A stretch of DNA of 64,000 nucleotides from Escherichia phage BAU.Micro_ELP-22 (OR699282.2); one strand, 5' to 3'. Positions 1 to 64,000 are shown, counted from the stretch's first letter. Notes: a model not told the origin generated them from the letters alone. Numbers and translations: made by a program.

Positions 1-226
1 ATAATTTAACCAGTATTGATATCAGTGAGTTGTACGCGTATTATCAAAGTGCATTAGAGATGCATAAGTTATTTTTGAGTACAGATTTTGTTCTAAATTA
101 CAATTTTGAGGAATTTAAAAATTATAATTTAGTACAGAAATATGTAGTAGCAAAGTACATGTACAATCAAGGAATCAAAGGTTGCATCGAATTCAATACC
201 GTTCTTGTTTTAGTTGAGGTAATTTT

Positions 227-733
227 ATGCACCGCATGTCTGATTTAGAGTTCAGTTTAGATGCAGCATTTAAATTTGTTCACAAAATAGAAACAATATA
301 CAGTACATTATGTGCAATAACATCAGTATCAAAAGAGCTTGATGTTGGTGAAAGGTATCAGGTGTGGAATAATTCATTTTTTAATAAAGAACATTCTTCG
401 ACGGCATTTTATATTTTAGCATTTAATCCCAGCAATTGTTACCCAGAGAAGCATGAACGTTATCCGAATGACGACATGTGGTTTGAGTACAAAGAAGATT
501 CTGATATGTCGTCAATTGTAGTTCCTGATGATTTTAATGCACAAGATTTAACAGAAGAGTGGTGGTTCCAGCAGAATTTAGTACATGATGATATTGATTT
601 ATTTTTCTATATTGCATTTAAAATGCTTTATCACAACAATATAGTTAAAGAAAGTGTATCGTTTTCATGTCTATATATTGATGATTTGTACAATGAAATT
701 CAAATAAACATGCCCAGAACGCCTGTATCGTAA
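227..733 (+). CDS. hypothetical protein, FQ-motif paralog family
   Basis: 168-aa ORF; C-terminal motif EEWWFQQNLVHDD fits family consensus [DE][DE]x[YF]FQxS-[LIV]-[YH]-D. Confidence 0.6.
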   Translation: MHRMSDLEFSLDAAFKFVHKIETIYSTLCAITSVSKELDVGERYQVWNNSFFNKEHSSTAFYILAFNPSNCYPEKHERYPNDDMWFEYKEDSDMSSIVVPDDFNAQDLTEEWWFQQNLVHDDIDLFFYIAFKMLYHNNIVKESVSFSCLYIDDLYNEIQINMPRTPVS

Positions 734-785
734 GATATGGGCTTTTTTCGTTTTGGTATTGACATAGAAGACCAAAGCTGTTATC

Positions 786-1328
786 ATGTGTATTCATTTT
801 AAAGGAGAACATATAGTGAGTTTCATAATCCCAAGTACATACGAAGATGCATCAAGTGCAGTTCATAAGATTCATTATATTTTTAATTTAATTATTAGAT
901 CTGCAAAAATTAAAATGTATGCACCTCTTGTGACAAATAATCGAAATGAAGAAATTTTTATTAGCACAGACAAAATTATTTTTCCATATTTCAATGAAGA
1001 TAGATTGTGGTTCATACATTTAGCTGCATTACAAAAATATAAGATGTCAATTCGTAATAATTTGGTTATACCGTTATATCATCCCGATATTGGAGAGGAT
1101 GAGTATTTTCAGTACAGCACAGTACACCGCCATGAAGATATCTTTGCTGCTATGCTTATTGCTAAATTGAACACCGTTGATTTGGAGCAGTACAAATACA
1201 ATAATAAATCATGTAAGATCATAATCCCTGCATTCATAGCTCTTTATGATTATGTGGTGCATAACAAAAAAGATGATACATATGCTTTCAATGAAGAGTA
1301 TTTGAATTTTTTTAAGGAGAAAATATGA
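786..1328 (+). CDS. hypothetical protein, FQ-motif paralog family
   Basis: 180-aa ORF; motif GEDEYFQYSTVHRHED. Confidence 0.6.
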   Translation: MCIHFKGEHIVSFIIPSTYEDASSAVHKIHYIFNLIIRSAKIKMYAPLVTNNRNEEIFISTDKIIFPYFNEDRLWFIHLAALQKYKMSIRNNLVIPLYHPDIGEDEYFQYSTVHRHEDIFAAMLIAKLNTVDLEQYKYNNKSCKIIIPAFIALYDYVVHNKKDDTYAFNEEYLNFFKEKI

Positions 1329-1864
1329 GCAGTACAACAGTATCAAAAGTACAGAAAGCAATGTCATTCAATGAAATTGGTACATTTAAAGATAAGATCA
1401 TTGATTGCCTTGAATACATGATTTGTAGTAATATCGAAAGTATCGAGATATTTAACAAGACAAATCGCTCTTACCATATGATGTACATTGCAAACAATAA
1501 TGGTATCATTCCATTTATTTCGGATAGTACAATATGGTACGCATGTGATACGAAAAAATACACAGCAGGTTCGTATAGCTTAGGGTCACATACGGAATTG
1601 ATTATTCCTGAGCATTGTATGCAAGAAGAAGAATATTTTCAAATGCAATGTATACATTCACCATTAGTGTTGTTTAGTTTATATATTATACCTTATATCA
1701 CCAAATGTGTTCATGAGAATAAAGCTCCGTGGAATCATGAATTTGTATCGTTGAAGTTATTGTATAATGTATTAGTAGAATATTATGATTACAGGCACAA
1801 TGGTACAATCAGTGATGTATGGGAATTTGAATCGCTAAGGGTGAAAACATACACAGGTGAATGA
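1325..1864 (+). CDS. hypothetical protein, FQ-motif paralog family
   Basis: 179-aa ORF, ATGA start/stop overlap with upstream gene; motif QEEEYFQMQCIH. Confidence 0.6.
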   Translation: MSSTTVSKVQKAMSFNEIGTFKDKIIDCLEYMICSNIESIEIFNKTNRSYHMMYIANNNGIIPFISDSTIWYACDTKKYTAGSYSLGSHTELIIPEHCMQEEEYFQMQCIHSPLVLFSLYIIPYITKCVHENKAPWNHEFVSLKLLYNVLVEYYDYRHNGTISDVWEFESLRVKTYTGE

Positions 1865-2480
1865 TATGACCAGAATTAAAATGTATGATTTGATGCAGTA
1901 CAGTAAAATTGCCATTCCAGTGCTTAATAAAGTGCTGGATGCATTCATTGCCAAATACCCTGAGAATTCAGTGTTATGTATTCCATTTAGTGTTCCAGAT
2001 AAAGATGATATATTCCAAGTGAATGTCAGTACACGTGGTATTACATTACAGCAGAAATACATGGATACGGAATATTATGGAATAAAGTTGGATTCAGTAC
2101 AGGGTTCAAAATCAGCCTATGATTTTTTTGTTCCTAATAATATAGAGTCATGGGAAACAAACATTTCAAAGAAAGATGAAAATGATGTTCCTATTAGTGG
2201 TGTGTTCAACAATAAAGTTTTTTATTATTACGAAACCGACAAATTCCCTGAAGAGTTATATTACAATTCAGAAATGAATGAAGATGTAGATGCATTCATG
2301 TTTCAATTATCTTTAGTACATGATATCATTGATGTTCAAGAGTTAAGAGCAGAAATCAATTTAGCTAAAGAGTTATCGGACATGCTGCCACCGTTTAGTA
2401 TGCTTTTTTGTGAAGGTGGTTATTTTTCAAAAGAAGTGTTTGAACATTTCGTAGATGTTGTAAAAGGGTTGGATATATAG
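1857..2480 (+). CDS. hypothetical protein, FQ-motif paralog family
   Basis: 207-aa ORF; motif DAFMFQLSLVHDIID. Confidence 0.6.
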   Translation: MNDMTRIKMYDLMQYSKIAIPVLNKVLDAFIAKYPENSVLCIPFSVPDKDDIFQVNVSTRGITLQQKYMDTEYYGIKLDSVQGSKSAYDFFVPNNIESWETNISKKDENDVPISGVFNNKVFYYYETDKFPEELYYNSEMNEDVDAFMFQLSLVHDIIDVQELRAEINLAKELSDMLPPFSMLFCEGGYFSKEVFEHFVDVVKGLDI

Positions 2481-2481
2481 T

Positions 2482-2676
2482 ATGCTTACAGTTGATGTTA
2501 AACAAAAATACCGTAAGTTTGATTGGTTCACCGACAGTTTCCAGCTTGAATTATTACATTTGAATATCTGTGAAACATTATGTGCAGAAACACAAGATGA
2601 ATTTGATGATAGAGTGATGAACATAGTAATGCTTTCTTGCTTTAAACATTTTGGTTATTTTTTCGGACAGAATTGA
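2482..2676 (+). CDS. small hypothetical protein
   Basis: 64-aa ORF filling the gap between neighbouring genes, same strand. Confidence 0.35.
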   Translation: MLTVDVKQKYRKFDWFTDSFQLELLHLNICETLCAETQDEFDDRVMNIVMLSCFKHFGYFFGQN

Positions 2677-2684
2677 GGTAAAAA

Positions 2685-3203
2685 ATGCATCAACACAAGC
2701 ATCATTCATATGATTTTGCAATTAACATTATGAAGTTCATTCGAGCGTTGGAGGATGGGAAGCTTAGTCATAAGTACAGAAAAGAGGGTAACAATTGGTT
2801 CAGAAATGATGATGATGAGTTCAGAAGTCATAAGATTGTTTACAGCAATAATTACAGTGCCAATTACCTACAAGATGTAGTGATGTGTTTTGAATACGTG
2901 TTGCAGTTCAGGGGTTCAATCCAGGATGAGTTGATGGAGCACATGTACATCAGATACCTTCCAATGCTCAAAGATGAAAATGTATTATTAAATTCAATAT
3001 ACCAACGAGTTCGTGAAATTGAGTGCAGGGATATATTAGATACAGAAGAATCGTATTTCCAGCAATCCCTGATTTATGCACCTGATTTATTACAGGTACA
3101 TAATTTGTTTAATACATTACGTCAAAACATCAGTACAGACATATTTTTGTCATTATCGGATTATGATACATTTGTCAAAGATTTAGAGGAAATAGGTTTA
3201 TGA
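2685..3203 (+). CDS. hypothetical protein, FQ-motif paralog family
   Basis: 172-aa ORF; motif TEESYFQQSLIYAPD. Confidence 0.65.
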   Translation: MHQHKHHSYDFAINIMKFIRALEDGKLSHKYRKEGNNWFRNDDDEFRSHKIVYSNNYSANYLQDVVMCFEYVLQFRGSIQDELMEHMYIRYLPMLKDENVLLNSIYQRVREIECRDILDTEESYFQQSLIYAPDLLQVHNLFNTLRQNISTDIFLSLSDYDTFVKDLEEIGL

Positions 3204-3544
3204 GTCAATTTTCGGTTTATATAGTAAACGTCAGTAAAGATGGTAGTTTAATTGAATTTGATGTAGTTGATAACAATGATAATTCATATGGTATTAAGGT
3301 ACAGGACAATGATGTACAGTTCAGTACAAGGACAAATTTTGAGAATCCAGTCCAAGTTCCGAATTTCATAGAAGATGAAGCTGCACGATTCCAATACGAA
3401 ACGGCATATGACAATGTACATATGCATATTATTATGCAAACGAGTTTAGTTCAATTAGTTCCTTTGTTCAGACAAAATATATATGTACATGAAGTGTCGA
3501 TTAATGGCATTCAAAGTTCCGTTTTGTTCGGTACAAATATGTAA
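3200..3544 (+). CDS. hypothetical protein, degenerate FQ-motif
   Basis: 114-aa ORF; weak motif EAARFQYETAYDN. Confidence 0.5.
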   Translation: MSQFSVYIVNVSKDGSLIEFDVVDNNDNSYGIKVQDNDVQFSTRTNFENPVQVPNFIEDEAARFQYETAYDNVHMHIIMQTSLVQLVPLFRQNIYVHEVSINGIQSSVLFGTNM

Positions 3545-3554
3545 GGAAAGTACA

Positions 3555-4106
3555 ATGAGTTCAATGAGTTTATTAGATACATTAGAAAAAGACAGAAGTG
3601 CAATTAAGCGTTTAAAAGAGCAAGTACAAAAGATTGTATACAACGTTGATAAGTTTGAAGTCCCAGGAAGATTTGGTGATATTTCCCATACGGAGATCAA
3701 ATCCCTTAAGTCAGATTTGTTGATTAAAAATAAAAATGGGTTGATTTTAGTTTTGAGTTCAGATATGATGGGGGCAACACATAGTTATAATGCAGTATCG
3801 GTGCGTTCAGAGTGTGAAGGTATATATCTATCACAGGGTTTCAATAGCGAGACACAGGTTTGTTTTTGTGATGCAGTACATGACCCTATGAAGTTCACGA
3901 GAAGTGAAGCCCAAGCGTTATTAGAGCTATCAGACGAGAGTTTGTTTCAGTACAGTACAATGTATGACAATGATAAGCTTCGTTGTATGTACGCTGTAAA
4001 GCATTATACACAGGAGTTTTCTGGATTTGCATACCTTTTAGTTAGAACCAATACCAGATATATTGATATGTTAGAAGATTACATCGATAAAGTTGTTAAT
4101 GTATGA
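3555..4106 (+). CDS. hypothetical protein, FQ-motif paralog family
   Basis: ORF track start 3483 overlaps upstream gene; internal ATG 3555 preceded by AAGGAAAG chosen; motif SDESLFQYSTMYDND. Confidence 0.6.
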   Translation: MSSMSLLDTLEKDRSAIKRLKEQVQKIVYNVDKFEVPGRFGDISHTEIKSLKSDLLIKNKNGLILVLSSDMMGATHSYNAVSVRSECEGIYLSQGFNSETQVCFCDAVHDPMKFTRSEAQALLELSDESLFQYSTMYDNDKLRCMYAVKHYTQEFSGFAYLLVRTNTRYIDMLEDYIDKVVNV

Positions 4107-4296
4107 TGTATTATTATGGGATGGGATAATGCTGATGAAAGAGTTATTTGAAGATCAGTTCAATACATATGTGGATAATATTCTTTATTCCAGCCGTGCT
4201 AGTCAACGAGGAAATCGTGCTTACAATATAGATTACCTATTAGTGGTGCTGAGTTCACAGTACACCTACGCTGTACAGAGGACATATTATGAATAA
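4093..4296 (+). CDS. small hypothetical protein
   Basis: 67-aa ORF, overlapping start/stop chain with neighbours. Confidence 0.35.
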   Translation: MLMYDVLLWDGIMLMKELFEDQFNTYVDNILYSSRASQRGNRAYNIDYLLVVLSSQYTYAVQRTYYE

Positions 4297-4492
4297 TTTT
4301 AGAGATGTTGCTAAGGAGAAGTTCAAGTGCAGTTTAGATTACGGTTTAAATGATTTTCTTACATGCACAATGTACAGGAATGATGATTATGAGCAATCCG
4401 TAATTTCGTTGCACAGATATTTCGAAATAATTTACGCAAGATATCTTAGAAGGTTAGATGGGATAGGGGATTGGAATTATGATTACGTTTGA
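4289..4492 (+). CDS. small hypothetical protein
   Basis: 67-aa ORF in tandem chain. Confidence 0.35.
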   Translation: MNNFRDVAKEKFKCSLDYGLNDFLTCTMYRNDDYEQSVISLHRYFEIIYARYLRRLDGIGDWNYDYV

Positions 4493-4688
4493 AGAGCCGG
4501 AAGTGTTAAGTTCGCATAGTATTAAGGGTTTTGAATACATGATGGATTTGATTTTGAAGGATACATATTTGGTTCAGAGTGTAGATAATACGGTACACCG
4601 AGTATTGAATTTATACGAGATGACGAGTCGAAGGCTTTGTGCGATGAAAAGGATTGAAGAAATCAAGCTTTCTAGGCTGAATAAATAG
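4479..4688 (+). CDS. small hypothetical protein
   Basis: 69-aa ORF in tandem chain. Confidence 0.35.
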   Translation: MITFEEPEVLSSHSIKGFEYMMDLILKDTYLVQSVDNTVHRVLNLYEMTSRRLCAMKRIEEIKLSRLNK

Positions 4689-4884
4689 AGACGTTTCATT
4701 TTTACAGGCCGCAGGGGGTCAAAAAAATTTCCGCTGAAAAACATGCTAAGGTATATGTTTAATATAAAGTTTTATATTGTGTTTTTCAGAGTACAGTCCA
4801 TGTTTCCTGAAACAAAAAATACCCCGCCCCCGCAACGTGCTCCTTATATTGGAGTTTACCTTATTAATTATAGTAGAGATTAAG

Positions 4885-5262
4885 ATGGAAATAAAATATA
4901 ATGAATTTTGTGCAAGGACATGGATGTACACTGGTGAGTTAGTTACGCACTCTAACTTATACAAGGGTGATTTAAACTACGCTAGGGACAAGATTTTAAA
5001 GTACTGGAATGCTGACTTTTATTTGATGGATTTTAGTACTGGGTTTCATGGGATATCTATCGAGATGCCGGACTATACAGTACTTGATGATGCTGCACTG
5101 TTCCAGGAGGCATTAGTATTTGATAAGAAGTACATCTGTACATTAGAAGAGATGATTGAATTACAGCGTAGAATTAAATGTATTCACAGGGAATGTATAG
5201 ATATCTGGTGCAGTACTGGTGAGGCCGATTTCTGGAAATTTTTTAATCTAGGAGAAGAGTGA
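4885..5262 (+). CDS. hypothetical protein, FQ-motif family (LFQEALVFDKKY subgroup)
   Basis: In-frame ATG 4885 (MEIKYNEF) after a non-coding stretch; motif DDAALFQEALVFDKKYICTLEEMIELQ. Confidence 0.6.
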   Translation: MEIKYNEFCARTWMYTGELVTHSNLYKGDLNYARDKILKYWNADFYLMDFSTGFHGISIEMPDYTVLDDAALFQEALVFDKKYICTLEEMIELQRRIKCIHRECIDIWCSTGEADFWKFFNLGEE

Positions 5263-6475: not shown

Positions 6476-6476
6476 A

Positions 6477-8607: not shown

Positions 8608-9080
8608 TGTACGAAAGTGATCTTAAGCACGCTGAGGAATTAGTTAATATAGTAAAGTTCTTTCAAAATAATGTAAAGTACTTAGACGACAAAGGGGCAT
8701 ATATTAGTACTATAAGTGTTGGTACAGATATTCTAGGATTAGGTAATGAATATAAGTACGAGTCCCATGATTATGATTTGGAATTCAAGTACTTCGAATG
8801 GAATCCTGGAACTTTCTATTCAATCGATGAAAGTGGGAAATATTTTGAATTCACCGAAGAAGACGTACTATTCTTAAATTCAGAAGATGCTTACTTCCAG
8901 TACAGTACTATATACCCAAATAGTGCATTAAGATCTTTAGTAGTTTTTAATGCATTTCTGAAAGAGAACTTTAATAATTCTATATTCATTGATTTAAATT
9001 ATGTATATGAACTAAATCAGGTGATATATATGGAGTCCAGAAAAAATGAGTTACGAAAGTGCAATCAAGAAAGCAAATGA
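8607..9080 (+). CDS. hypothetical protein, FQ-motif family
   Basis: 157-aa ORF; motif SEDAYFQYSTIYPNSALRSLVVF; N-term IVKFFQNN shared with next gene. Confidence 0.65.
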   Translation: MYESDLKHAEELVNIVKFFQNNVKYLDDKGAYISTISVGTDILGLGNEYKYESHDYDLEFKYFEWNPGTFYSIDESGKYFEFTEEDVLFLNSEDAYFQYSTIYPNSALRSLVVFNAFLKENFNNSIFIDLNYVYELNQVIYMESRKNELRKCNQESK

Positions 9081-11533: not shown

Positions 11534-11538
11534 AACCA

Positions 11539-12226: not shown

Positions 12227-12233
12227 GGTTTAT

Positions 12234-12796: not shown

Positions 12797-12829
12797 CCCT
12801 TTATATTAATTGTAAAGGGTTATAACACA

Positions 12830-54611: not shown

Positions 54612-55364
54612 ATGATATCAGAAAAATTTATAAGCAATGAAGGTAAAAAGCGATTACTGATTATATCAGGTGCAGGACTTTCTGTTGAAAGTGGTATGGA
54701 ACCTTTTCGATTTGATGATGGTTTGTGGGATACATTTAAAATTAATGATGTATGTAACATTGCTAGTTTAACTACAAAATATCATGTTGTTCATTCTTTC
54801 TATAATACATTACGTGTAAAATTGGGACAATGCGAACCCAATGCAATGCATTATTTTATAAAATCGTTAGAAGATCAATATGGTGATTGCTTCCTTCATA
54901 TGACTTCTAACATGGATGATCTTTATACTCGTATCGGTGGTCATGAGCTTAAACTTCATGGAAACTTGTGCGAAGTTATTGAAAATTATAGTATCAATTC
55001 TGATGATTATAATGTTATTAACTGCGGATACGAACCATACATACCAAAACATGATGTTTTTGCTAAACCAAATGTAGTAATGATTGGAGAATATCATCGT
55101 TATGTTGATGGTATTCGCTTACCAATTTACGAAGAACGAAATAATGTGTTGAAATCTCTTAATGAAAATGATACAGTTATTGTAATTGGTAGTAGCGATA
55201 CAGTACTGGTGTGGTCGAGATTAGCAGCAGCATTGCCATGTTATAGTGTTAATGTTAACATTCGTAAAAATGATAATGATTTTTTGTTTAATGAAAAAGT
55301 TATCAAGCCAGCAACCAAAGCAATACCTCAACTAGAGACTATAATTAAGGAACGTATGAAATGA
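54612..55364 (+). CDS. Sir2-family NAD-dependent deacylase/ADP-ribosyltransferase-like protein
   Basis: LLIISGAGLSVESGMEPFRFDDGLW (NAD-binding GAGxSxxSGIxxFR), catalytic-His context ELKLHGN, VIVIGSSDTV; ATG 54612 with AAGGA RBS. Confidence 0.65.
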   Translation: MISEKFISNEGKKRLLIISGAGLSVESGMEPFRFDDGLWDTFKINDVCNIASLTTKYHVVHSFYNTLRVKLGQCEPNAMHYFIKSLEDQYGDCFLHMTSNMDDLYTRIGGHELKLHGNLCEVIENYSINSDDYNVINCGYEPYIPKHDVFAKPNVVMIGEYHRYVDGIRLPIYEERNNVLKSLNENDTVIVIGSSDTVLVWSRLAAALPCYSVNVNIRKNDNDFLFNEKVIKPATKAIPQLETIIKERMK

Positions 55365-55912
55365 GTGTTAAAGAAGTTCCCTTTGGTGAATATGGCACAC
55401 GTGCAAATTTTGTATTTTGCTATTTCTTTGCAAGAAAATGCAACCCTTACGAAAACTATGAGTTAAATGATATACCAGAAGTAAATCTGGTATTACTACA
55501 ATTACGATGGGATGGTCTTCTTGGTGGATGTGGTGGAACCGTAGAAAGTACTGATATCTCACTAGAAGATGCGTTGCGTCGTGAAGTTCAAGAAGAAATG
55601 GATTACAATATTTTTGTTTCCCATCTTCGACCACTCAAAACTTTTGAAATTTACCCAGGTGCAAACAGTCATAGTTTTAGCTATGAAGTGAGCTATGACG
55701 AGTTGAAACACATTAGAGATGGATACACTAATGCTAAACATGCAAGTGCAGAAGTGGCTGGTGTAAATTTATGTCATATTTCTCGTTATTCTAAGGGACA
55801 AAATCGAGAAGCGGGATATAATAATCTTATGACACAGAACTTCATCGGTACAGCAAAACAAGAATTGGAGTATCTGGTTCAAAAAGAAAACTTACTAATT
55901 AGTTATCTATAG
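55361..55912 (+). CDS. putative Nudix hydrolase (divergent Nudix box)
   Basis: GGCGGTVESTDISLEDALRREVQEEMDY resembles Gx5Ex7REUxEExGU but with a longer E-to-RE spacer. Confidence 0.45.
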   Translation: MSVKEVPFGEYGTRANFVFCYFFARKCNPYENYELNDIPEVNLVLLQLRWDGLLGGCGGTVESTDISLEDALRREVQEEMDYNIFVSHLRPLKTFEIYPGANSHSFSYEVSYDELKHIRDGYTNAKHASAEVAGVNLCHISRYSKGQNREAGYNNLMTQNFIGTAKQELEYLVQKENLLISYL

Positions 55913-55921
55913 GAGTTTAAC

Positions 55922-56242
55922 ATGTCTTACTCAATGTTTTTGGATGATATTCGTGATGCAAATCTATATTATCCAAACCAAGATATGGTGGTATGTCGTG
56001 ACTTTAAAAGTGCATGTGAATATGTTATTGAAAATGGAATTCCAGCATTTGTATCATTCGACCATGACTTGGGTGATGTGAGCGAAGACGAAAAGACTGG
56101 ATATTCTTTTGCTAAGTTTCTTATTGATTATATGTTTGATAATAATATTAAAGAACCGTTTGAGTACTTTGTTCACAGTAGTAATCCTGTTGGTAAAATT
56201 AATATTGAAACATACTTAAACAATGGATTTAACGCATTATGA
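55922..56242 (+). CDS. hypothetical protein
   Basis: 106-aa ORF with GGAG RBS. Confidence 0.55.
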   Translation: MSYSMFLDDIRDANLYYPNQDMVVCRDFKSACEYVIENGIPAFVSFDHDLGDVSEDEKTGYSFAKFLIDYMFDNNIKEPFEYFVHSSNPVGKINIETYLNNGFNAL

Positions 56243-56541
56243 TTCAAACACACATCAAAAGTCTTATTTGTACTGTTCTGTTAGGTGCAGGAGTTCTTTG
56301 GTTCGGACAGTATCACGAGAACACTAAGCGTACCAACATTCACTACAATACCGCAGAAGTTGTTAGTTTAGGACAATGTAGCGAGTCCAAATGTTCATTT
56401 ATGTATAAAACCCAAAATGGTGAAGTACGTAATGGACTATCAAGAGAACCAGTTTCAATTGGTCAACTTGTTTACCAGGAGTGCTGGGAAGAAAAGGTTC
56501 GAGGTTCACGTTGCTATGTTGAATACGAACCAAATATGTAA
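56239..56541 (+). CDS. hypothetical membrane-anchored protein
   Basis: 100 aa; N-terminal hydrophobic segment LICTVLLGAGVLWF. Confidence 0.5.
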   Translation: MIQTHIKSLICTVLLGAGVLWFGQYHENTKRTNIHYNTAEVVSLGQCSESKCSFMYKTQNGEVRNGLSREPVSIGQLVYQECWEEKVRGSRCYVEYEPNM

Positions 56542-56601
56542 TAATCCGAGTCAATAACATTAGTCGAGTACAAGGATGTACTCATAACTCAAGGATGTTT
56601 T

Positions 56602-58041
56602 ATGAAAAAATATACAATTGACACAAACGTACTACTATCTGACCCTAATGCATCTATTGCTTTTGATGGTGCTGCAATCATTCTACCATTTACAGTACTG
56701 GAAGAATTGGATTCAATTAAGAGTCGTAATGTAGATGTTTCACGCGATGCTCGTGTTGCTATTCGTAACATTGAAGCAATTATTGCAGATGCATCACATG
56801 ATGAGATTAGTAGTACTGGTGTTAATATTGCTGATGTTCATACCAATATGAATCCTGATAGCAAATTGTTTGTTATTACAAACGAAGAAGCTGAAGCACT
56901 AATTCGTACTAAAGGTTCAGAAGAGAAAGTTCAAACCCTTCTCAAAAGCACAGTACCTGATGATAAAATCATTCTGGTAGCTTTAGCAACAGAATCAGTA
57001 CTGGTAACTCGTGATATCAACATGCGTATCAAAGCACTAAGTTATGGTGTCGAGGTACAAGATTATCGCCATGATATTGTTATTGGTGATAGTGATTTGA
57101 TTCACATTGGTCAACACCATTTGGAAATTAATTTTTGGGAAGTATATAGCAACTTAACCAATACTAATATTCAATCCGAACAAGTTGGTCGTCGTTTGTA
57201 TCATTACATTTCTAAAAGCTTGATTGAACATTTGCTTCCACAAAATCTATGCATCGGTGATTATCTATATGATGATGCAGACGTATTATTTGTGTACGAA
57301 GGTCAATCAGCAATTGAGGAAGATGATGGAACACTAACACCAGAAGATATTTTGGTATTCCAAGATATTGGACAATCAGTAGCTTTACGTGCTAAAGTAT
57401 GGGATATTAAAGCAAAGAATATCCAACAAGCACTCGCCATCAACAGTATTCTCGATCCTGATGTACATCTAACAGTACTGCTAGGTTCTGCTGGTACTGG
57501 TAAAACACTAATTACGATTGCTACTGCATTAGAATTAGTACTGGAAAAACGTAAATACGACCGAATCATCTTCTCTAAAACTCAAGACTCACAGTTTGAA
57601 GATATTGGTTTCTTGCCAGGTTCAGAAGCAGAAAAAGTGATTCCATTCTGTGGAGCCGCAATTGACGCGTTAGAGTTTCTTCATAAAGATGATGCTAACC
57701 CACAAGGTAGTATTGAAGAGATTATGAAACGTAATGTTATTCAATTTAAAGCACTAAACTTTGTACGTGGACGTTCATTCACCAACACTATTCTAGTAGT
57801 TGATGAATTCCAAAACATTACACCTGCACAAGCCAAAACAATCTTGACACGAGCAGGATTAAACTGTAAAGTAGTAATTATGGGTAACTTGAGTCAGATT
57901 GACAGTAAGTTTATTAGTCCTGTTAACAGTGGTTTGACATATGTAACTGAGAAGTTTAAAGATTGGGCAGGTTGTCGTGTCATCGAACTAGAAGGTGTTG
58001 TTCGTTCACCACTTGCAGAATTTGCTGAAGAAAATATGTAA
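56602..58041 (+). CDS. phoH: PIN-domain / PhoH-like ATPase fusion protein
   Basis: N-terminal PIN-like YTIDTNVLLSDP...LEELD; C-terminal Walker A LLGSAGTGKTLITIA and Walker B-like ILVVDEFQN. Confidence 0.75.
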   Translation: MKKYTIDTNVLLSDPNASIAFDGAAIILPFTVLEELDSIKSRNVDVSRDARVAIRNIEAIIADASHDEISSTGVNIADVHTNMNPDSKLFVITNEEAEALIRTKGSEEKVQTLLKSTVPDDKIILVALATESVLVTRDINMRIKALSYGVEVQDYRHDIVIGDSDLIHIGQHHLEINFWEVYSNLTNTNIQSEQVGRRLYHYISKSLIEHLLPQNLCIGDYLYDDADVLFVYEGQSAIEEDDGTLTPEDILVFQDIGQSVALRAKVWDIKAKNIQQALAINSILDPDVHLTVLLGSAGTGKTLITIATALELVLEKRKYDRIIFSKTQDSQFEDIGFLPGSEAEKVIPFCGAAIDALEFLHKDDANPQGSIEEIMKRNVIQFKALNFVRGRSFTNTILVVDEFQNITPAQAKTILTRAGLNCKVVIMGNLSQIDSKFISPVNSGLTYVTEKFKDWAGCRVIELEGVVRSPLAEFAEENM

Positions 58042-58045
58042 TATT

Positions 58046-58078
58046 GTATGGGACATAATGTCCCATACATGATATAAT
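58046..58078 (+). promoter_or_regulatory. perfect palindrome overlapping extended -10 promoter
   Basis: GTATGGGACAT-a-ATGTCCCATAC (58046-58068), then TGaTATAAT (-10 hexamer 58073-58078); GGGACA sits at the -35 position. Confidence 0.5.
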
Positions 58079-58109
58079 GTTGTTATCATAATACAGAAGG
58101 AGATATAAA

Positions 58110-58307
58110 ATGGCTAAACAACCTAAGAAACAAGAACCAGTAGCAAAAGTTAAGAAAGAGAAAGTTATTCAATCTAAAGAACAACGTATGTACGAACAAC
58201 GTAAGAGTGAAACCCTATCCGGTCTACAAGCTCTACGCAAACAAGGTGTACTAACTCGTGCTCAATACCGTGAGATAGTAGCACAAAAAGGTTATTGGGG
58301 CATTTGA
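58110..58307 (+). CDS. small basic hypothetical protein
   Basis: 65 aa with AAGGAG RBS; lysine-rich. Confidence 0.55.
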   Translation: MAKQPKKQEPVAKVKKEKVIQSKEQRMYEQRKSETLSGLQALRKQGVLTRAQYREIVAQKGYWGI

Positions 58308-58401
58308 AGCAATAAACTGGAGTTCATGATAAATACTTTCATAAGAATAATAATACTTTTTATTAATTTAAAAAGAACTCCATGTGTTATTTCAGTTTTT
58401 C

Positions 58402-58429
58402 ATCCCTGTCTTTTGGCAGGGATTTTTTA
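58402..58429 (+). terminator. rho-independent terminator
   Basis: ATCCCTG-tcttttgg-CAGGGAT hairpin followed by TTTTTT. Confidence 0.7.
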
Positions 58430-58524
58430 TATCTATATCTTGACAAAAGGAACAAATCATGAGAACATGTATTAAAGGAAGAATGACTTTCCATTAGGTT
58501 ATTTTAACTTAAAGGAGATTTCAT

Positions 58525-59082
58525 ATGTTTTTTGACCAAACATTTACGTTGTATCACGATTCTGGTAAAGTTGAGATTATTGATAATCTGTTAGAGTACA
58601 TTGCGGAACATGACGGTATAGACCGTTTCCACAGTAAGATGAAATTCGATTTAGCTGAATTCAACAAAAAGAATCGTGAAACATTTTGGAAGAACCGTTT
58701 CTATTACGAAATGTTTCCAGAAAAGTTTGTGGGTTATTATCTTTGTACTGAAAAAGGATTACTTGTATCTCCTGATTTACTTATGGGTGAATACATGATA
58801 CTCTATAATGAGTACTGGGAACATAAACGTAAAGCTCGTGATACTGAATGGCGACATAAGCGTTCGTATATGTACAAACATAACCACTCACGATACAAGC
58901 GTCCTAAGACTCAACAAGAGCGTCGTATGGCTTGTGCAGTACTGAAGGATGAGGGGGAACCTGAAATACGTGGAAGACGTAAGATGCGTTCATTACCATC
59001 GTATTGGGACGATATCAGAACAAGACATAGTACTGGCTGGAAATACAGTACTAAACGTAAACATCAATACAAAGGGAGCTAA
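58525..59082 (+). CDS. hypothetical basic protein
   Basis: 185 aa with AAGGAG RBS; Arg/Lys-rich C-terminal half. Confidence 0.55.
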   Translation: MFFDQTFTLYHDSGKVEIIDNLLEYIAEHDGIDRFHSKMKFDLAEFNKKNRETFWKNRFYYEMFPEKFVGYYLCTEKGLLVSPDLLMGEYMILYNEYWEHKRKARDTEWRHKRSYMYKHNHSRYKRPKTQQERRMACAVLKDEGEPEIRGRRKMRSLPSYWDDIRTRHSTGWKYSTKRKHQYKGS

Positions 59083-59100
59083 TGCTCCCTAATTTTATAG

Positions 59101-59439
59101 GTGAACTTTATGAACAAAATTGACGTTACTGTAGTGATTGGTTATATTGAAATTGAACCGTGTGGCATTGATACCTTTATTGACACTCTTAATAAGTATC
59201 GTGCTGAATATAACGGTCCCATTAGTCTTTCACCAGACGGTGGTTACGGCGGGTTCGATGGATACAATGTAATTTGGACCAGAGAAGAAACTGACGAAGA
59301 ATATAATACACGAATTGAAGCTGAATCTAAAAGATGTGAAGAAATTGAACGTCAAGAAATGAAACACTTAATGAACAAGAAATCATTAAGTACCGAAGAG
59401 AAATCTAAACTGCTAAAATACATCAAGGATTACATGTAA
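59101..59439 (+). CDS. hypothetical protein
   Basis: GTG 59101 per track (ATG 59110 alternative). Confidence 0.5.
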   Translation: MNFMNKIDVTVVIGYIEIEPCGIDTFIDTLNKYRAEYNGPISLSPDGGYGGFDGYNVIWTREETDEEYNTRIEAESKRCEEIERQEMKHLMNKKSLSTEEKSKLLKYIKDYM

Positions 59440-60089
59440 TGAAAAATGTAACTCAAGAAAAGATTCTGTACCTTGCAAAGTACAATGGTGGTTTCAATAT
59501 CATTAGCCGTGAGTACAGTGGTAATTTGGCTAAGTTGATTGACAGTTTGTTAGAATTTGATTTCATTAAATGGGAAACTAATGAACTTTGGTACGAATAT
59601 GCTGGTCAGAAATGGGAAAGTGATTATGATAATGCAATACATTCATACACTATCACCAAAGCAGGTGAAGTTCGATTAGCCATTATGCGTTGTGCATATA
59701 CTTACAAAAATCATAAAGGTGAAGAAAAACATATTCGCAGAAATGAAGAGCTATTACTTCTCATGGAAGCAGCAAAAGTTACAATGCATGATTTGTTCCA
59801 CCACCCACGTTGGTATGAAAATCTAACAAAAGCAGAGTACAAAGCTTTACGTTACATTGATGAACAAAACAACAACCCAGTTGAAGTTGATGATGTTAGT
59901 GATGACGAACTAAGCCTCAAAAATGTATTTGAAAGTACCAGTACTGAAAGTATTACAGACATTTCTGTACAGATGGCACTAAAAGCAATGGAACTTTTCA
60001 AGACACAATATGAAGGACACAGTGCTGAAGAAGTAGAGCGTGAGTTCATTACACGCGTACAGATTGCATTGTTCCAATCGAAAAAGTAG
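59439..60089 (+). CDS. hypothetical protein
   Basis: 216-aa ORF. Confidence 0.55.
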   Translation: MKNVTQEKILYLAKYNGGFNIISREYSGNLAKLIDSLLEFDFIKWETNELWYEYAGQKWESDYDNAIHSYTITKAGEVRLAIMRCAYTYKNHKGEEKHIRRNEELLLLMEAAKVTMHDLFHHPRWYENLTKAEYKALRYIDEQNNNPVEVDDVSDDELSLKNVFESTSTESITDISVQMALKAMELFKTQYEGHSAEEVEREFITRVQIALFQSKK

Positions 60090-60293
60090 GATGATATGAA
60101 ATATGAACATCCGTGATGGGTTATCATATAAAGAAGCAGGTAAAGATGGTGTCAAAGTCTTTGCATTTGTGCACTTGACATGTTCGCTTTGTAATGCGAT
60201 AATATAAGTTCAGAAGAGATGGAACGTGAGTTCCTTACTTACATGAATGTTAAACTAGCCAAATGGCGTAAATCAATTCAATAGGTATTTTAA

Positions 60294-61265
60294 ATGAAAA
60301 CTAAAATTATTTCTGAACAAAAAATTGGCAATACTACAGTACTGAATCTTGAAGTTCAAGGTCTTAGTAATGTTCGTTCTCTTACGGTTTGTACTCAGAG
60401 AGATGATTTGACTGATTTCTATAGCTCAGAATACATGTCAGAAGAACCTTGGGATATGGGATGGTTGGACGGTAGTAGTTATATCAGTTCACGTTATAGT
60501 TTTGGTTCTCATGAAAATATTGAACAATTAAAAAATGAGTATATTAAACTCAGTGATACTATTGAAATGAAAGAAGAAGATTGTGTAGAACTTTTCATTT
60601 TTGAATTCGATGCCGGAAATGGTAATTCATTACTAGTAAGTAATATTGAAGAACATTTAATGTATCATGAAATTGAAGATGTAGATTTTGAAAGTATTAA
60701 AAATGTTGTTCATATGGTTGGTGGTAGTATTACTGATGATTCAGATATCGGTCATAATATTTCACTTTGCTTAATTTCTCATCCAAAAACTCGTGGTTTT
60801 AAAGTTCCACAAGATGAAACTTACGTGTCTGAAACTGCTGATGAAGGAATTTATCCTTGGAATGATTATGTAGAATACTATGGTCATTTCTGTTCTGATA
60901 CAAAAGAACTGAAAAAAGGCGAACAATATTTTGATATGTTCCGTGCTGCACAGCGTTTAGTACTGAATAATACTGAACTATTTCCTGATCGCGGCGAAGA
61001 AAATATGATTGATATTATCTTCAAGAACTATGATTATGTACAGAACATTCCTGATAATGTACATTTGGAATATGTTCACGGTTCTTCAAACAAATTCTAT
61101 AATATTGAATTGAATGCTCCAGTGTGTGAAGTAATTATTGAGTACGGTGCTATTGGTAAAACCAGTACTACTGATGGTGAAGAATTCGAAACTATTGAAG
61201 AAGCACGTAAGTTCTTCGAGAAGAAAGTAATTTCCAAAATTAAAAGTGGTTATAGCCCAAAATGA
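60294..61265 (+). CDS. hypothetical protein with C-terminal WGR-like domain
   Basis: C-terminal ~80 aa (YVHGSSNKFYNIELNAPVCEVIIEYGAIGKTSTTDGEEFETIEEARKFFEKKV) resembles the WGR domain of PARP-type proteins. Confidence 0.45.
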   Translation: MKTKIISEQKIGNTTVLNLEVQGLSNVRSLTVCTQRDDLTDFYSSEYMSEEPWDMGWLDGSSYISSRYSFGSHENIEQLKNEYIKLSDTIEMKEEDCVELFIFEFDAGNGNSLLVSNIEEHLMYHEIEDVDFESIKNVVHMVGGSITDDSDIGHNISLCLISHPKTRGFKVPQDETYVSETADEGIYPWNDYVEYYGHFCSDTKELKKGEQYFDMFRAAQRLVLNNTELFPDRGEENMIDIIFKNYDYVQNIPDNVHLEYVHGSSNKFYNIELNAPVCEVIIEYGAIGKTSTTDGEEFETIEEARKFFEKKVISKIKSGYSPK

Positions 61266-62410: not shown

Positions 62411-62455
62411 TATCAGTACTGTCATAATGGCAGTACTTTTTAATTGGAGATTACT

Positions 62456-63070
62456 ATGACTACATCGGAAAAGTACTGGTGGATTTTGGCTCATCCCAAA
62501 TTCATAAACAAAGATATGGTTCCAGCTAGGATTGATATAGAACCTCATGATGTGTGTCCAATGACAAATCGAATTGAAGATTTCAAAGCATTGAATACAA
62601 AGACTCAATTTTGGGTAGAATTTCTTTCACCAATGTATATTGAGCAAGACGACGAATGGGTACAAGCACATGATTATCAATTGGATTGTGGTGGTGATAC
62701 GTATGAAGAGGCGATTGAAAAATTATACAAAAATGTGCTAAACACATATGGTAATTACACCCAACAAGAAGCAGATAACACATTTAATAAGATCCATGCA
62801 TTCAAATCTACTCCATCAATTTTTAATCCCACTAAAACTGTTTGGGAGGAACGACACAGTTGGAGTTCATGTGTAATCGATGAAGAAACCAAAGAAAAAA
62901 TCATCGATGATATAAAAAATTTAAAAAATACGATAGAAGCCTTGCGTGAATTCATAATGTCTTGTACAATAGAACAACAGAAAGAGGCAAAGATACATTT
63001 GGAGAGTGAAGAATGTAAACTTTGGGTTCTAGAGAAATCTATTGAAAAGGGTATAGACTTAGACTTATGA
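62456..63070 (+). CDS. hypothetical protein
   Basis: ATG 62456 with GGAG RBS preferred over track start 62444. Confidence 0.5.
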   Translation: MTTSEKYWWILAHPKFINKDMVPARIDIEPHDVCPMTNRIEDFKALNTKTQFWVEFLSPMYIEQDDEWVQAHDYQLDCGGDTYEEAIEKLYKNVLNTYGNYTQQEADNTFNKIHAFKSTPSIFNPTKTVWEERHSWSSCVIDEETKEKIIDDIKNLKNTIEALREFIMSCTIEQQKEAKIHLESEECKLWVLEKSIEKGIDLDL

Positions 63071-63435
63071 ATAGTAAATTGGAGAAACTAATCGAAGAAT
63101 TACGCCAGATGCCACCTATTGAACAAGTAGGAAATTACAAACGGTATCGTGTTATTGCTCGTGCACTTGATAAAAAAGGTAGAGTACTGGCAACTCGCAC
63201 AAATTCTTATACACAGACTCACCCAGTACAGAAGGGTTTCGCCATTCGTGCTGGGCGACCGCAAGGTGAGTTTCTTCATGCTGAAATTTCATGTTTACTG
63301 GCTGCTCGTACTGATGTTCATACTTTACTGATTGCACGGATAAGTAAAGATGGAATTCCTGTTCCGGCTAAACCATGTGAAATTTGCTCATTAGCAATAA
63401 AAGAATATGGGGTGAAAGAGATTATCCACACATGA
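63067..63435 (+). CDS. small CDA-fold zinc-dependent deaminase-like protein
   Basis: Zinc-ligand signature HAE (FLHAEISCLLAA) and PCxxC (PAKPCEICSLAI) with spacing typical of the cytidine/dCMP deaminase fold; 122 aa. Confidence 0.55.
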   Translation: MNSKLEKLIEELRQMPPIEQVGNYKRYRVIARALDKKGRVLATRTNSYTQTHPVQKGFAIRAGRPQGEFLHAEISCLLAARTDVHTLLIARISKDGIPVPAKPCEICSLAIKEYGVKEIIHT

Positions 63436-63653
63436 AAATTGAAAGATATGCTAAGCATACTGTTGGGTGTGTAAATGATATATTCTATTATTATATTTTT
63501 GCACCTGAACTACGTTTTCAAATCACAACATACAATGATGGCAGATTTAAAGATACAAACTTCCTCATAACCGACTTAGCAAAGTATGCGAATACAGAAC
63601 ATTTTAATCATTTAGTATTTGTGTACTGTATACCAAACCCAAATAAAAAGTAG
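63432..63653 (+). CDS. hypothetical protein
   Basis: ATG 63432 overlapping upstream stop (ATGA). Confidence 0.45.
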   Translation: MKIERYAKHTVGCVNDIFYYYIFAPELRFQITTYNDGRFKDTNFLITDLAKYANTEHFNHLVFVYCIPNPNKK

Positions 63654-63663
63654 GAGATTAAAA

Positions 63664-64000
63664 ATGGCTAAAACAATTTCTTTAAAAAATGAAAATGTAG
63701 GACAACGCAAAGATGGTTTCTTTGGTTTTTCTTGGACAACATTATTCTTTGGACCGTTCCCTGCATTGTTTCGTGGTGACTTTATTACGTTCATCGGTGC
63801 ATTTGTAATTTACTTCATCCTCAACGCAGTGTCATTTTGGATTGTGGGTACAATTGCAATGGTTGTATGGGCATTTCTTTATAATAAGTACTACACCGTG
63901 AATCTCATCAAGAATGGGTATAAATTCAATGGCACACATGAAGAAAATGCTGAAGCTGCAATGGCTTTGCAAATTGATTTGAATAAAAACAACACAGTTG
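63664..64000 (+). CDS. membrane protein (3'-truncated at window end)
   Basis: AGGAG RBS 7 nt upstream of ATG 63664; open to window end; hydrophobic segments. Confidence 0.55.
   Translation, partial: MAKTISLKNENVGQRKDGFFGFSWTTLFFGPFPALFRGDFITFIGAFVIYFILNAVSFWIVGTIAMVVWAFLYNKYYTVNLIKNGYKFNGTHEENAEAAMALQIDLNKNNTV

Follow-up and report, generated by a model that had tools for sequence, protein, structure and literature searches.

AGTACT as a candidate highly iterated palindrome of enterobacterial RaK2-like jumbo phages

The palindrome AGTACT is the top outlier (rank 1) among all 4096 hexamers in a stretch of jumbo coliphage DNA, and its excess points to selection on the DNA itself, as neither codon usage nor protein sequence can yield it. 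The stretch analysed, referred to here as the window, comprises 64,000 nucleotides of Escherichia phage BAU.Micro_ELP-22 (OR699282.2), an Asteriusvirus with 97.8% identity to phage SP27. Selection at the DNA level, which the original prediction had also favoured over an amino-acid or codon-usage artefact, is well supported because protein-preserving shuffles, slow substitution of the motif both outside genes and at the third base of codons, roughly symmetric flanks, the density of copies in non-coding DNA and the upkeep of that density across four genera all argue for it. The explanation proposed here, which is tentative and which we would place just short of an even chance, is that AGTACT is a highly iterated palindrome of enterobacterial RaK2-like jumbo phages, kept dense by this selection and read by a clade-specific factor.

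Exact counting finds 197 copies of AGTACT in the window, for which base composition predicts 21.4 and dinucleotide-preserving shuffles yield 16.8 ± 4 (maximum 27). The over-representation of about an order of magnitude claimed by the original prediction is thus real and stronger than stated (197 against about 17 expected), and its local counts of six copies at 9001-10020, three of them within 9560-9602, and of four at 45001-46000 are exact. A similar density had been reported for rnlA and the ligase gene; five sites are indeed present in the RnlA-type RNA ligase gene (36582-37724, + strand), a conserved enzyme gene rich in sites, and six in the DNA ligase gene (45780-47198, + strand). Codon-preserving shuffling, named at the outset as the test capable of overturning the claim, left it standing: synonymous-codon shuffles that keep each protein gave 48.8 ± 6.0 copies (maximum 66) and codon-order shuffles 23.9 ± 4.6, against 182 in coding sequences. 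The Markov models that had likewise been suggested expect 74 (order 3) and 169 (order 4), but such high-order nulls are circular here because the 5-mers on which they are trained, AGTAC and GTACT, are themselves mostly AGTACT copies. External genomes were taken as the valid null instead, namely T4, with 4 copies against 8 expected, and the E. coli host, with 3 per 50 kb (about 1 per 17 kb).

The palindromes form a field without strand preference at 5000-63892 (197 copies, 3.3 per kb), lying in all three frames and between genes. Frame counts are 77, 43 and 62, with up to 15 further copies outside gene calls; every frame is enriched, and the density in non-coding DNA equals or exceeds that of coding DNA. 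The hexamer had been read as Ser-Thr, Val-Leu or Gln-Tyr according to frame, and all three dipeptides prove to be inflated (141 against 75, 171 against 99 and 62 against 36, respectively). CTG, noted beforehand as an otherwise uncommon Leu codon, is rare in the window (132/1620); no other codon pair encodes Val-Leu there as often as GTACTG does. The excess might be put down to codon usage, to dipeptide content or to a family of dispersed repeats, AGT, ACT, GTA and TAC being common codons here. The probability of such an artefact is close to nil, as the observed count exceeds that of the protein- and codon-preserving shuffles by 22-34 standard deviations and the enrichment extends to all three frames and to non-coding DNA. 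Dispersed repeats (REP/MITE-like) and tandem arrays were rejected: information content is limited to about ±4 bp around AGTACT, 136 of 142 20-mer contexts in the terminal repeat are distinct and spacing is near-random. Pairs of sites separated by 20-24 bp are modestly over-represented across the genome, an example being the tight trio at 9560-9602 (no strand; copies at 9560, 9576 and 9597, with spacings of 16 and 21 bp).

The flanks of the motif are roughly dyad-symmetric, with C at -1 in 43% and G at +1 in 47% of copies, giving the extended consensus C-AGTACT-G (CAGTACTG, 46 occurrences in the window) within a wider consensus T-n-C-AGTACT-G-n-A. These flanks bear on the suggestion that the copies are bound by SlmA, the nucleoid-occlusion protein of the host, through which the phage would block host cell division. 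AGTACT lies at the centre of the SlmA-binding sequence GTGAGTACTCAC (PMC3020112), sites in multiple copies block division (PMC3573117), and the enrichment is confined to phages of enteric hosts. SlmA, however, needs G1 and T2 followed by a purine as the third base (PMC3020112), and the phage sites lack these, sharing with the SlmA site a core (A4, G5 and pyrimidine 6) that AGTACT possesses by definition. Full flanks occur at 0 of 893 SP27 sites, only 9 carry GTR on the left (27 expected) and only 12 carry YAC on the right (23 expected), not even a relaxed site is found in the whole 347 kb, and at -1, where A follows C at 27%, G is the least frequent base (9%). SlmA-site identity is accordingly rejected, the required flanking bases being both absent and depleted, and a role for SlmA is extremely improbable.

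Enrichment of AGTACT by 7-20-fold characterizes four genera, Asterius-, Alcyoneus-, Mimas- and Eneladusvirus. T4 and Agrobacterium phage Atu_ph07 show none, and the Pseudomonas sister group is depleted (6 copies in MIJ3 against 26 expected). Density is upheld across the four genera despite turnover of the sites: positional conservation between genera is 31-43% for AGTACT, against 15-29% for control hexamers, and most sites turn over. Motif positions change at about half the background rate (about 0.3-0.7x of matched background), with 7 substitutions inside the motif against a codon-position-matched expectation of 22 in SP27, 22 against 44 in 121Q and 47 against 63 in UE-S1. This slowing extends to the third base of codons and to non-coding DNA, in which 0 of 52 and 0 of 88 positions within AGTACT copies have changed. 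Polarised changes comprise 11 gains and 19 losses, against a neutral prediction of about 7 losses per gain; fewer sites have been lost than neutrality would allow, which argues for selection and not merely for the generation of sites. Density is held constant by slow loss together with the appearance of new sites at different positions in each lineage.

The same phages lack the tetramer GCGC altogether, an observation missing from the original prediction. SP27 contains none against 180 expected, and the count is zero in all AGTACT-enriched genera and at expectation elsewhere, placing GCGC absence and AGTACT enrichment at the same phylogenetic boundary. This shared boundary is one reason to consider a mutational or repair drive without function, whether VSP-like biased repair or gene conversion, or a by-product of purging GCGC to GTAC by C-to-T change, that would create AGTACT more quickly than it is lost; two transitions turn GCGC into GTAC, which is 2.1-fold enriched overall. 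A similar drive is said to have been proposed for HIP1 by Elhai in 2015. As a relic of GCGC purging, AGTACT was rejected: the 180 expected GCGC are far too few to supply about 800 excess AGTACT, 0 of 38 aligned AGTACT sites correspond to GCGC in the outgroup, whose own 49 GCGC are aligned to GTGC, GCGT or GCAC and in no case to GTAC. Nor is there any depletion of AGTATT and AATACT, each one step away from AGTACT; fewer sites have been lost than neutrality predicts, and a drive would not readily maintain a zone that has sharp borders and its own strand-specific word (described below). We consider a functionless drive distinctly unlikely.

Over the whole SP27 genome AGTACT numbers 893 against 99 expected, and each 5-kb bin is enriched. 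Copies are most crowded where constraint from coding is least and in the 21-kb terminal repeats, the densest region (6.5/kb), in which non-coding DNA carries 10.8/kb and coding DNA 4.7/kb. Early and terminal regions are denser than late genes, a gradient that could simply mirror weaker protein constraint.

The original prediction placed AGTACT across the window; this holds from 5000 to 63892, but positions 1-4999 contain no AGTACT and no GTACT of any kind by exact count, and carry AGTACA instead. This AGTACT-free block, which had not been remarked upon before, is the right-hand part of a 7.6-kb polar zone (160.9-168.5 kb in SP27) that is conserved in 121Q, UE-S1 and fEgEco12. Such a block is kept by one genus, and the only form of the word that it admits, AGTACA, differs from the palindrome by one base and is present on a single strand. 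Its genes are uniformly on the + strand, and AGTAC occurs 43 times on the top strand and 0 times on the bottom, 41 of the 43 being AGTACA. Window positions 1-4999 (+ strand) contain 10 TGTACA and 27 AGTACA, the latter spread over all frames and confined to the coding strand. The zone persists in a lineage in which it retains only 78% nucleotide identity, the two lineages having 39 and 35 sites, of which only 19 are shared, and GTACT being absent from both. The switch from AGTACA alone to AGTACT is sharp, at an intergenic gap of roughly 200 bp (4689-4884, no strand), the zone's AGTACA ending with a copy at 4790 and AGTACT starting with one at 5000.

The strict confinement of the variant to the coding strand of uniformly oriented genes would suit a signal at the RNA level, with transcripts recognised at AGUACU (AGUACA within the variant zone), for example as a site cut or bound by a sequence-specific ribonuclease or RNA-binding protein controlling when mRNA decays or is processed. 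Genes in the window are almost all co-oriented, meaning that most sites are transcribed, and a palindrome supplies the identical RNA word from either strand. Roughly mirror-symmetric flanks on both DNA strands would not, however, arise from an RNA or coding signal, and the equal or higher density and unchanged state of non-coding copies tell against it. Regions of minus-strand genes are equally enriched, without a strand-specific variant, and the target of a ribonuclease is normally avoided rather than enriched. An RNA signal is therefore judged unlikely.

The polarity of this zone and the peak of density at the DNA ends also resemble the logic of Chi, and AGTACT could be the preferred cleavage or binding site of the phage's own topoisomerase II, or of another enzyme of replication or recombination, for instance a Chi-like signal to a helicase-nuclease; the palindrome would serve both directions and the polar zone one. 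Short Chi sites, such as the 5-mer of B. subtilis, occur at similar frequency. The anatomy C-A|GTAC|T-G suits a two-fold symmetric site with a 4-bp stagger, and the phage encodes topoisomerase II subunits. Strict polarity is confined to the 7.6-kb zone; outside it the oriented pentamer AGTAC is at expectation (114 and 108 against 118) and only the full palindrome is enriched. Topoisomerase II genes are present in RaK2, which is enriched, but probably also in its AGTACT-depleted Pseudomonas relatives, and sequence-specific evidence favours neither enzyme. The proposal as a whole is very unlikely.

A further possibility is that AGTACT is the target of the phage Dam-family or another methyltransferase, the sites having been enriched to maximise protective methylation against host defences. 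The Dam-family enzyme of the original prediction is a genuine PF05869 (TIGR01712) N6-adenine methyltransferase (28770-29291, + strand), but its link to AGTACT is unsupported and it can be regarded as a candidate reader only. Among the window's larger proteins it is the sole nuclease, methyltransferase or DNA-binding match. Homologs occur in all AGTACT-enriched genera, 121Q, UE-S1 and GAP32 carrying theirs in a common gene neighbourhood, and none was found for the Pseudomonas sister group at E<=1e-25; the same phyletic pattern is, however, common to many other genes. Short contiguous palindromes are typical of methyltransferase sites, and the DNA of RaK2 has been reported to be methylated (PMC3622015). 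Against this, AGTACT is not enriched in unrelated phages whose Dam homologs are 42-46% identical (Lactococcus 0 against 10 expected, Staphylococcus 9 against 11), methylation alone provides no reason for more sites, and the single-strand AGTACA zone is not explained. Virion DNA of fEgEco12 is cut normally by ten enzymes (ScaI not among them) and therefore shows no sign of bulk modification; these include EcoRI and HindIII, which are blocked by adenine methylation inside their sites and which cut as predicted. The genome also encodes a C5-methyltransferase, the distribution of which departs from the phyletic pattern of AGTACT. Taken as the cause of the enrichment, methylation is improbable.

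In cyanobacteria, highly iterated palindromes were recognized three decades ago and still have no agreed function; the cyanobacterial HIP1 is the closest analogue of AGTACT. To our knowledge, neither a strand-specific variant zone nor a rule of total GCGC exclusion has been described for HIP1; AGTACT phages have both. Three features by which such palindromes are recognized are found for AGTACT: it is a short palindrome many-fold above expectation and the top k-mer outlier, it is mostly genic, present in all frames and overrides codon and amino-acid preference, and its copies are under purifying selection with abundance kept across diverged genomes. For a fourth, a methyltransferase specific to the palindrome or its core, the encoded Dam-family and C5 enzymes are at most candidates. 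HIP1 (GCGATCGC; PMC5861425, PMC4390886) is likewise over-represented by an order of magnitude or more, lineage-specific, mostly genic, in every frame and under selection with turnover of individual copies, and is accompanied by orphan methyltransferases. AGTACT differs in being an AT-rich 6-mer of a viral rather than a cellular genome, with a cognate methyltransferase that is only a candidate. HIP1 proper was rejected, as the word is AGTACT in an enterobacterial phage and CGATCG occurs 0 times in the window.

Chi (RecBCD/AddAB), DNA uptake sequences and KOPS are short, dense, selected words that mark 'self' for a DNA-processing machine. The strict polarity of the variant zone and the density peak near DNA ends would be expected under Chi-type logic; these words, however, are asymmetric everywhere and have known readers, whereas the main form of AGTACT is a perfect palindrome whose reader is only inferred. 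The SlmA-binding sequence shares the central AGTACT and the enteric hosts, but the flanks that SlmA requires are depleted around the phage copies. Restriction-site avoidance, for example of ScaI (AGT^ACT), similarly concerns a 6-bp type-II-like palindrome under strong selection in phages; its sign is reversed for AGTACT (7-20x enriched), and it fits AGTACT in MIJ3 (6 against 26) and GCGC clade-wide.

Together, the AGTACT excess and the accompanying protein changes point to an undiscovered system that may read AGTACT on viral DNA. Under the explanation favoured here, the reader would be a clade-specific, two-fold symmetric factor acting on double-stranded DNA, either type-II-enzyme-like (a methyltransferase, nickase or nuclease-like protein) or a small dimeric binder. 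Half of the palindrome would constitute one reading unit, displayed on both strands by AGTACT and on one by AGTACA. The original prediction had offered DNA modification, nicking, packaging and nucleoid binding as possible roles. Speculatively, the word could serve as a dense 'self' mark, occurring roughly every 200-400 bp in the phage but only every 17 kb or so in E. coli, which together with GCGC absence might let phage-directed nucleases destroy host DNA and spare or process phage DNA, beginning at the terminal repeats that bear free ends. Against this explanation, the restriction of a single-strand variant to one block, with A rather than C/G at position 6, is not accounted for. A bolder scenario, possible though on balance doubtful, is that self and non-self are told apart by sequence grammar alone, without modified bases: GCGC would be forbidden as the target of a phage-directed nuclease that breaks up host DNA, AGTACT required as a bidirectional Chi-like or protective mark for a clade-specific reader, and AGTACA a one-strand dialect for the 7.6-kb block. 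T4, by comparison, carries hydroxymethylcytosine as a modified base.

No earlier report of AGTACT enrichment was found in the searchable literature, and the AGTACT-free polar AGTACA zone and the absence of GCGC in exactly the AGTACT-enriched genera are new findings. AGTACT represents an extreme case on the scale of HIP1, here in a lytic phage that has numerous sequenced relatives and whose fast life cycle is open to experiment. Three handles are available that HIP1 lacks, namely a single-strand-variant control block, an AGTACT-depleted sister lineage and a co-inherited absolute ban on GCGC, which make the purpose of such words directly testable. The combination of AGTACT richness and GCGC absence also provides a simple signature for spotting members of the clade in metagenomes. 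If the sequence-grammar scenario is true, it would constitute a new kind of viral self/non-self system and a tractable model for highly iterated palindromes. If AGTACT is a self mark, it would show how giant phages without modified bases tell their own DNA from that of the host, and would bear on the engineering of Asteriusvirus, RaK2-like and GAP32-like phages for phage therapy.

The window comes from a jumbo coliphage of the genus Asteriusvirus, whose genomes measure about 350 kb; by megablast the window is 97.8% identical to SP27 (98.2% in the alignment used to study selection) and approximately 94-95% identical to 121Q, PBECO4 and Sharanji (121Q 95.3% in that alignment), and its position 9000 corresponds to position 172549 of SP27. 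Its G+C content is 32.9% and the plus strand holds 131 of the 136 gene calls. AGTACT occurs 197 times, compared with 16.8 +/- 4 copies (maximum 27) in dinucleotide-preserving shuffles and 21.4 expected from base composition, which bears out the large excess put forward in the original prediction, whose local counts were all exact on recount. The palindrome is the strongest outlier among the 4096 hexamers, the runners-up (CAGTAC, GTACTG and AAGTAC) overlapping AGTACT itself, and its extended consensus is C-AGTACT-G, with T/A preferred more weakly 3-4 bases out. The observed count also exceeds the Markov expectations of order 3 (74) and order 4 (169), a comparison proposed at the outset, and these nulls are circular and inflated because the pentamers on which they are trained, AGTAC and GTACT, are mostly copies of the motif. 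More telling are the controls: 41 kb of T4 contains 4 copies, where 8 are expected, and 50 kb of E. coli K-12 contains only 3.

Within the genes of the window, which contain 182 copies, a synonymous-codon shuffle of each gene that keeps both proteins and codon usage yields 48.8 +/- 6.0 copies (maximum 66) and a shuffle of codon order yields 23.9 +/- 4.6. The original prediction had argued against an amino-acid or codon-usage artefact and had staked this on a codon-preserving shuffle, which fails to reproduce the count; each of the three frames lies 3.3- to 4.6-fold above the synonymous shuffle. The protein-preserving and codon-order shuffles together rule out a codon, dipeptide or Markov artefact as the cause, and the codon-preserving nulls are conservative, as the codon usage that they preserve has already been inflated by the motif. 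Ser-Thr is written AGTACT in 77 of 141 dipeptides, where codon frequencies predict about 21, and the dipeptides able to encode the word are in excess as well (ST 141 versus 75, VL 171 versus 99, QY 62 versus 36), with no such excess of the reversed pairs TS and LV; protein sequences have thus been reshaped by the DNA word.

Selection was examined by aligning the window to SP27, 121Q and UE-S1 (98.2, 95.3 and 92.9% identity, respectively). In all three alignments, motif positions have changed less than matched outside positions in every class, including third codon positions (1.6 versus 3.5%, 4.1 versus 8.8% and 9.3 versus 12.4%) and non-coding positions (0 of 88, 0 of 52 and 1 of 52, versus 1.4, 3.9 and 7.7% outside), the total of motif changes being 7 where 22 are expected for SP27, 22 versus 44 for 121Q and 47 versus 63 for UE-S1. 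Polarised changes comprise 11 gains and 19 losses of AGTACT. With approximately 540 one-step neighbours and 197 motifs, neutrality predicts about seven losses per gain, and the motif is thus near an equilibrium maintained by selection. Between genera, codon alignments of 28-49 orthologs (about 62-79% amino-acid identity) place AGTACT at the same position in 31-43% of cases, versus 15-29% for control hexamers; the sites are mostly lineage-specific and often stand in place of quite different sequences, the density being kept. A main rival to selection is a repair drive of the VSP type that would generate the word, against which the neighbouring sequences AGTATT and AATACT are not depleted. Together with the shortfall of the shuffles, the slow change at motif positions upholds the earlier claim of selection at the level of DNA, which very probably acts on a recognition site. 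In UE-S1 (L017, compared with window 5000-46000), AGTACT is approximately 20% less frequent than in its relatives; this phage lacks 26 sites common to the other three, most commonly replaced by AGTTCT (8 of 26), and has only three unique sites. As this comparison has no outgroup, the deficit may represent relaxed selection in UE-S1 or gains in the others.

The SP27 genome, rebuilt from 50-kb pieces, contains 893 copies in 347 kb. All 5-kb bins exceed expectation, including those in minus-strand gene blocks, and the density is approximately 1.5-2 per kb at its lowest, in the late structural genes, and 6-7 per kb at its highest, at 128-150 kb. The physical termini of fEgEco12 have been established by PhageTerm and restriction mapping; the record begins at the left end and the genome has a direct terminal repeat of 20,993 bp (PMC13070987). 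The AGTACT-dense stretch of that record stops at approximately 20.7-20.9 kb, and the terminal repeat is therefore the densest region. The first 5 kb of GAP32 has the same pattern (40 copies, 2 expected). Within the terminal repeat, AGTACT reaches 10.8 per kb in non-coding DNA versus 4.7 in coding DNA, and 136 of 142 sites have unique 20-mer contexts. Given the local density, the sites are spaced almost at random, apart from a slight surplus of 20-24-bp distances (26 versus 12.4 +/- 3.5) and a mild shortage of long gaps. These contexts and spacings rule out a dispersed repeat or tandem array and indicate independent hexamers, as dense as coding constraint allows. A link to GC-skew landmarks is likewise ruled out, as skew tracks gene orientation only. 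Two 12-mers recur in the SP27 terminal repeat (128-150 kb), AAAAGTACTTGC eight times and TTCAGTACTGAA six times, and a minority of its sites may lie inside a repeated regulatory element, possibly early promoters. Directly after the repeat, a run of tandem small ORFs of about 5 kb, encoding approximately 70 residues each (SP27 153.6-158.4 kb, about 5-10 kb upstream of window position 1; fEgEco12 L019:6900-12000), is almost devoid of AGTACT and AGTACA (one each in SP27) and has ACTATC and CTATCA as its top k-mers, forming a third compositional domain.

The original prediction had extended the excess across the entire window; it is high overall, but the first 5 kb has no copies of AGTACT or GTACT and instead carries 27 of AGTACA, all on the plus strand, in three frames and in unrelated contexts. 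This is the right-hand part of a zone spanning 160.9-168.5 kb of SP27, in which AGTAC occurs 43 times on the top strand and never on the bottom (7.7 expected per strand). The next base is A in 41 of the 43, versus 70% elsewhere, so that this position specifically demands A; TGTACA, likewise a palindrome, is over-represented too, with nine copies. Outside the zone, large plus-strand regions have oriented AGTAC at expectation (114 and 108 versus 118), where only the full palindrome is thus selected. The zone has sharp borders, the right one being a 200-bp intergenic gap (window 4689-4884), and a tail of extra AGTACA extends about 20 kb rightward; no sigma-70 promoter or terminator at the boundary rises above chance. 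The zone is also present in 121Q, UE-S1 and fEgEco12. In the last of these it lies 29-37 kb from the left genome end and is 77.6% nucleotide-identical, with 42 copies of AGTACA and none of GTACT in 8 kb. The two zones have 19 AGTACA positions in common, out of 39 and 35 sites, and replaced sites have never become AGTACT; this turnover without GTACT indicates that the single-strand form is actively maintained. It also excludes a recent foreign import, given the presence of the zone in 121Q, UE-S1 and the divergent fEgEco12, and paralogy is rejected as the cause because the zone genes have no Pfam matches and no paralogs within the window. The zone is specific to Asteriusvirus: the syntenic region of GAP32 lacks it, and a query with one zone protein returned homologs only from Escherichia and Salmonella phages. 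The protein encoded at window 1866-2480 is 100% identical in at least 13 phage records and at least 99% identical in 20, among the matches listed, even in cases where window 9000-14000, a few kb to its right, shows only 94-96% identity; a second subgroup has the protein at just 56%. This pattern suggests that the block has swept or been exchanged recently, or else that constraint on it is unusually strong.

Among relatives, sampled over 27-100 kb each, AGTACT is the top outlier in RaK2 (Alcyoneusvirus; 114 observed, 11 expected), two segments of GAP32 (Mimasvirus; 114 and 253, 14 expected in each), XbC2 (Mimasvirus; 90, 13.5 expected) and Serratia phage BF (Eneladusvirus; 86, 12 expected). The enrichment is absent from the sampled T4 and Agrobacterium phage Atu_ph07, mild in Salicola phage SCTP-2 (20 versus 8) and reversed in the Pseudomonas sister group (MIJ3, PA5oct-like), with 6 copies where 26 are expected in 77 kb. 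In MIJ3 (L012, L018) the word is among the most depleted palindromes, and its lineage has queE and gpt-like genes, which suggest a 7-deazaguanine DNA modification and hence a protection strategy unlike that of the enterobacterial relatives. XbC2 (L010), whose recorded host is Xanthomonas, has the full enterobacterial-clade signature (AGTACT 90 versus 13.5, GCGC 0 versus 38) together with a capsid protein at 89% identity; its natural host range may be worth a second look.

The same phylogenetic boundary delimits a complete absence of GCGC: none in the window (25 expected), none in SP27 (180 expected) and none in the sampled segments of the four enriched genera (about 280 expected in sum), the GCGC-free loci being L008, L009, L010, L015, L016, L017, L019 and L020. 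In MIJ3, SCTP-2, Atu_ph07 and T4, GCGC is at expectation. That the ban is absolute in phages infecting at least six host genera suggests that they carry its cause with them, for instance a candidate GCGC-specific nuclease of the clade; no gene for such an enzyme was found, and a coarse scan had no restriction-type nuclease among the best 25 Pfam families from 140 SP27 proteins. As C-to-T transitions on the two strands of GCGC yield GTAC, AGTACT could be debris of the purge. The numbers do not match (180 expected GCGC versus approximately 800 excess AGTACT), not one of the 38 AGTACT sites aligned across 20 orthologs also present in MIJ3 stands opposite GCGC, and the 49 GCGC of the outgroup align with GTGC, GCGT and GCAC, never with GTAC; this origin is therefore rejected. 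Other tetranucleotides are also scarce: GATC is under-represented (85 versus 214 in the window, 612 versus 999 in SP27) despite a phage-encoded Dam-family methyltransferase, and GGCC and CCGG are at about half of expectation in both.

Of what reads the word, its flanks give an indication. They are roughly mirror-symmetric (43% of the 893 SP27 sites have C at -1 and 47% have G at +1), and with the contiguous palindrome of 6-8 bp they point, as sequence features, to recognition on duplex DNA; a signal at the level of RNA is a main rival explanation. Enzymes that wrap around the helix (type II methyltransferases, nucleases, topoisomerases) and small dimeric binders typically recognise palindromes of this kind; a site of the topoisomerase or Chi-like type counts as a further main rival. 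That AGTACT is a methylation target is also a main rival, and the original prediction had pointed to the Dam-family enzyme at 28770. The enzyme is genuine, its gene neighbourhood is the same in 121Q, UE-S1 and GAP32, and it has homologs in all enriched genera, with none detected in the Pseudomonas group; Lactococcus and Staphylococcus phages with 42-46% identical homologs are not enriched, however, and the family is therefore unlikely to be the determinant. SP27 also encodes a compact C5 cytosine methyltransferase of 286 residues (62461-63318; L003:12461-13318, in a piece of that genome), whose best alignment, over its whole length, is with the catalytic domain of eukaryotic DNMT3 (E ~1e-23) and whose distribution does not match that of AGTACT, so that it too is rejected as the reader. 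SmaI, ClaI and NruI are sensitive to CpG methylation. All three cut fEgEco12 DNA, so the C5 enzyme probably does not methylate CpG generally in virion DNA; ten restriction enzymes, ScaI not among them, cut this DNA as predicted, which makes bulk hypermodification unlikely (PMC13070987). The host protein SlmA binds GTGAGTACTCAC, with AGTACT as its core, and requires G1, T2 and a purine at position 3 (PMC3020112). It is rejected as the reader, as the required flanks are two to three times rarer than chance, no phage site is a full site and relaxed sites are absent throughout the 347 kb. Elsewhere, window 54612-61265 encodes several clustered proteins whose domains relate to NAD/ADP-ribose and RNA: SIR2 (54612-55364), a Nudt16-like NUDIX (55361-55912), a fusion of PIN and PhoH (56602-58041) and a protein with a WGR domain (60294-61265). 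Together they may form a counter-defence module.

AGTACT is a selectively maintained DNA word that follows clade-, domain- and strand-specific rules. In searches of the literature that covered the full-text genome papers of RaK2, CBB, Sharanji, fEgEco12 and related phages and stopped short of subscription-only papers such as the description of GAP32, neither the AGTACT excess nor the GCGC absence came up. Among described phenomena, AGTACT comes closest to HIP1 of cyanobacteria (PMC4390886, PMC5861425). AGTACT fits the description of a highly iterated palindrome, yet it is not HIP1. Three of its features have, to our knowledge, no described counterpart in HIP1: the polar zone with its variant word, the sister lineage in which the palindrome is depleted, and the second word that is forbidden. 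Each half of the palindrome may constitute one reading unit, which AGTACT would offer on both strands and AGTACA on one. AGTACT is approximately 50 times denser in the phage than in the host, and this density, its concentration in the terminal repeat at the free ends and its coupling to the GCGC ban favour a sequence-based distinction of self from non-self, the explanation that we prefer over the others but still consider rather unlikely in this particular form. Under this proposal, host DNA would be attacked at a word that is absent from the phage, and the phage would have its own DNA marked or processed at a word that is nearly absent from the host.
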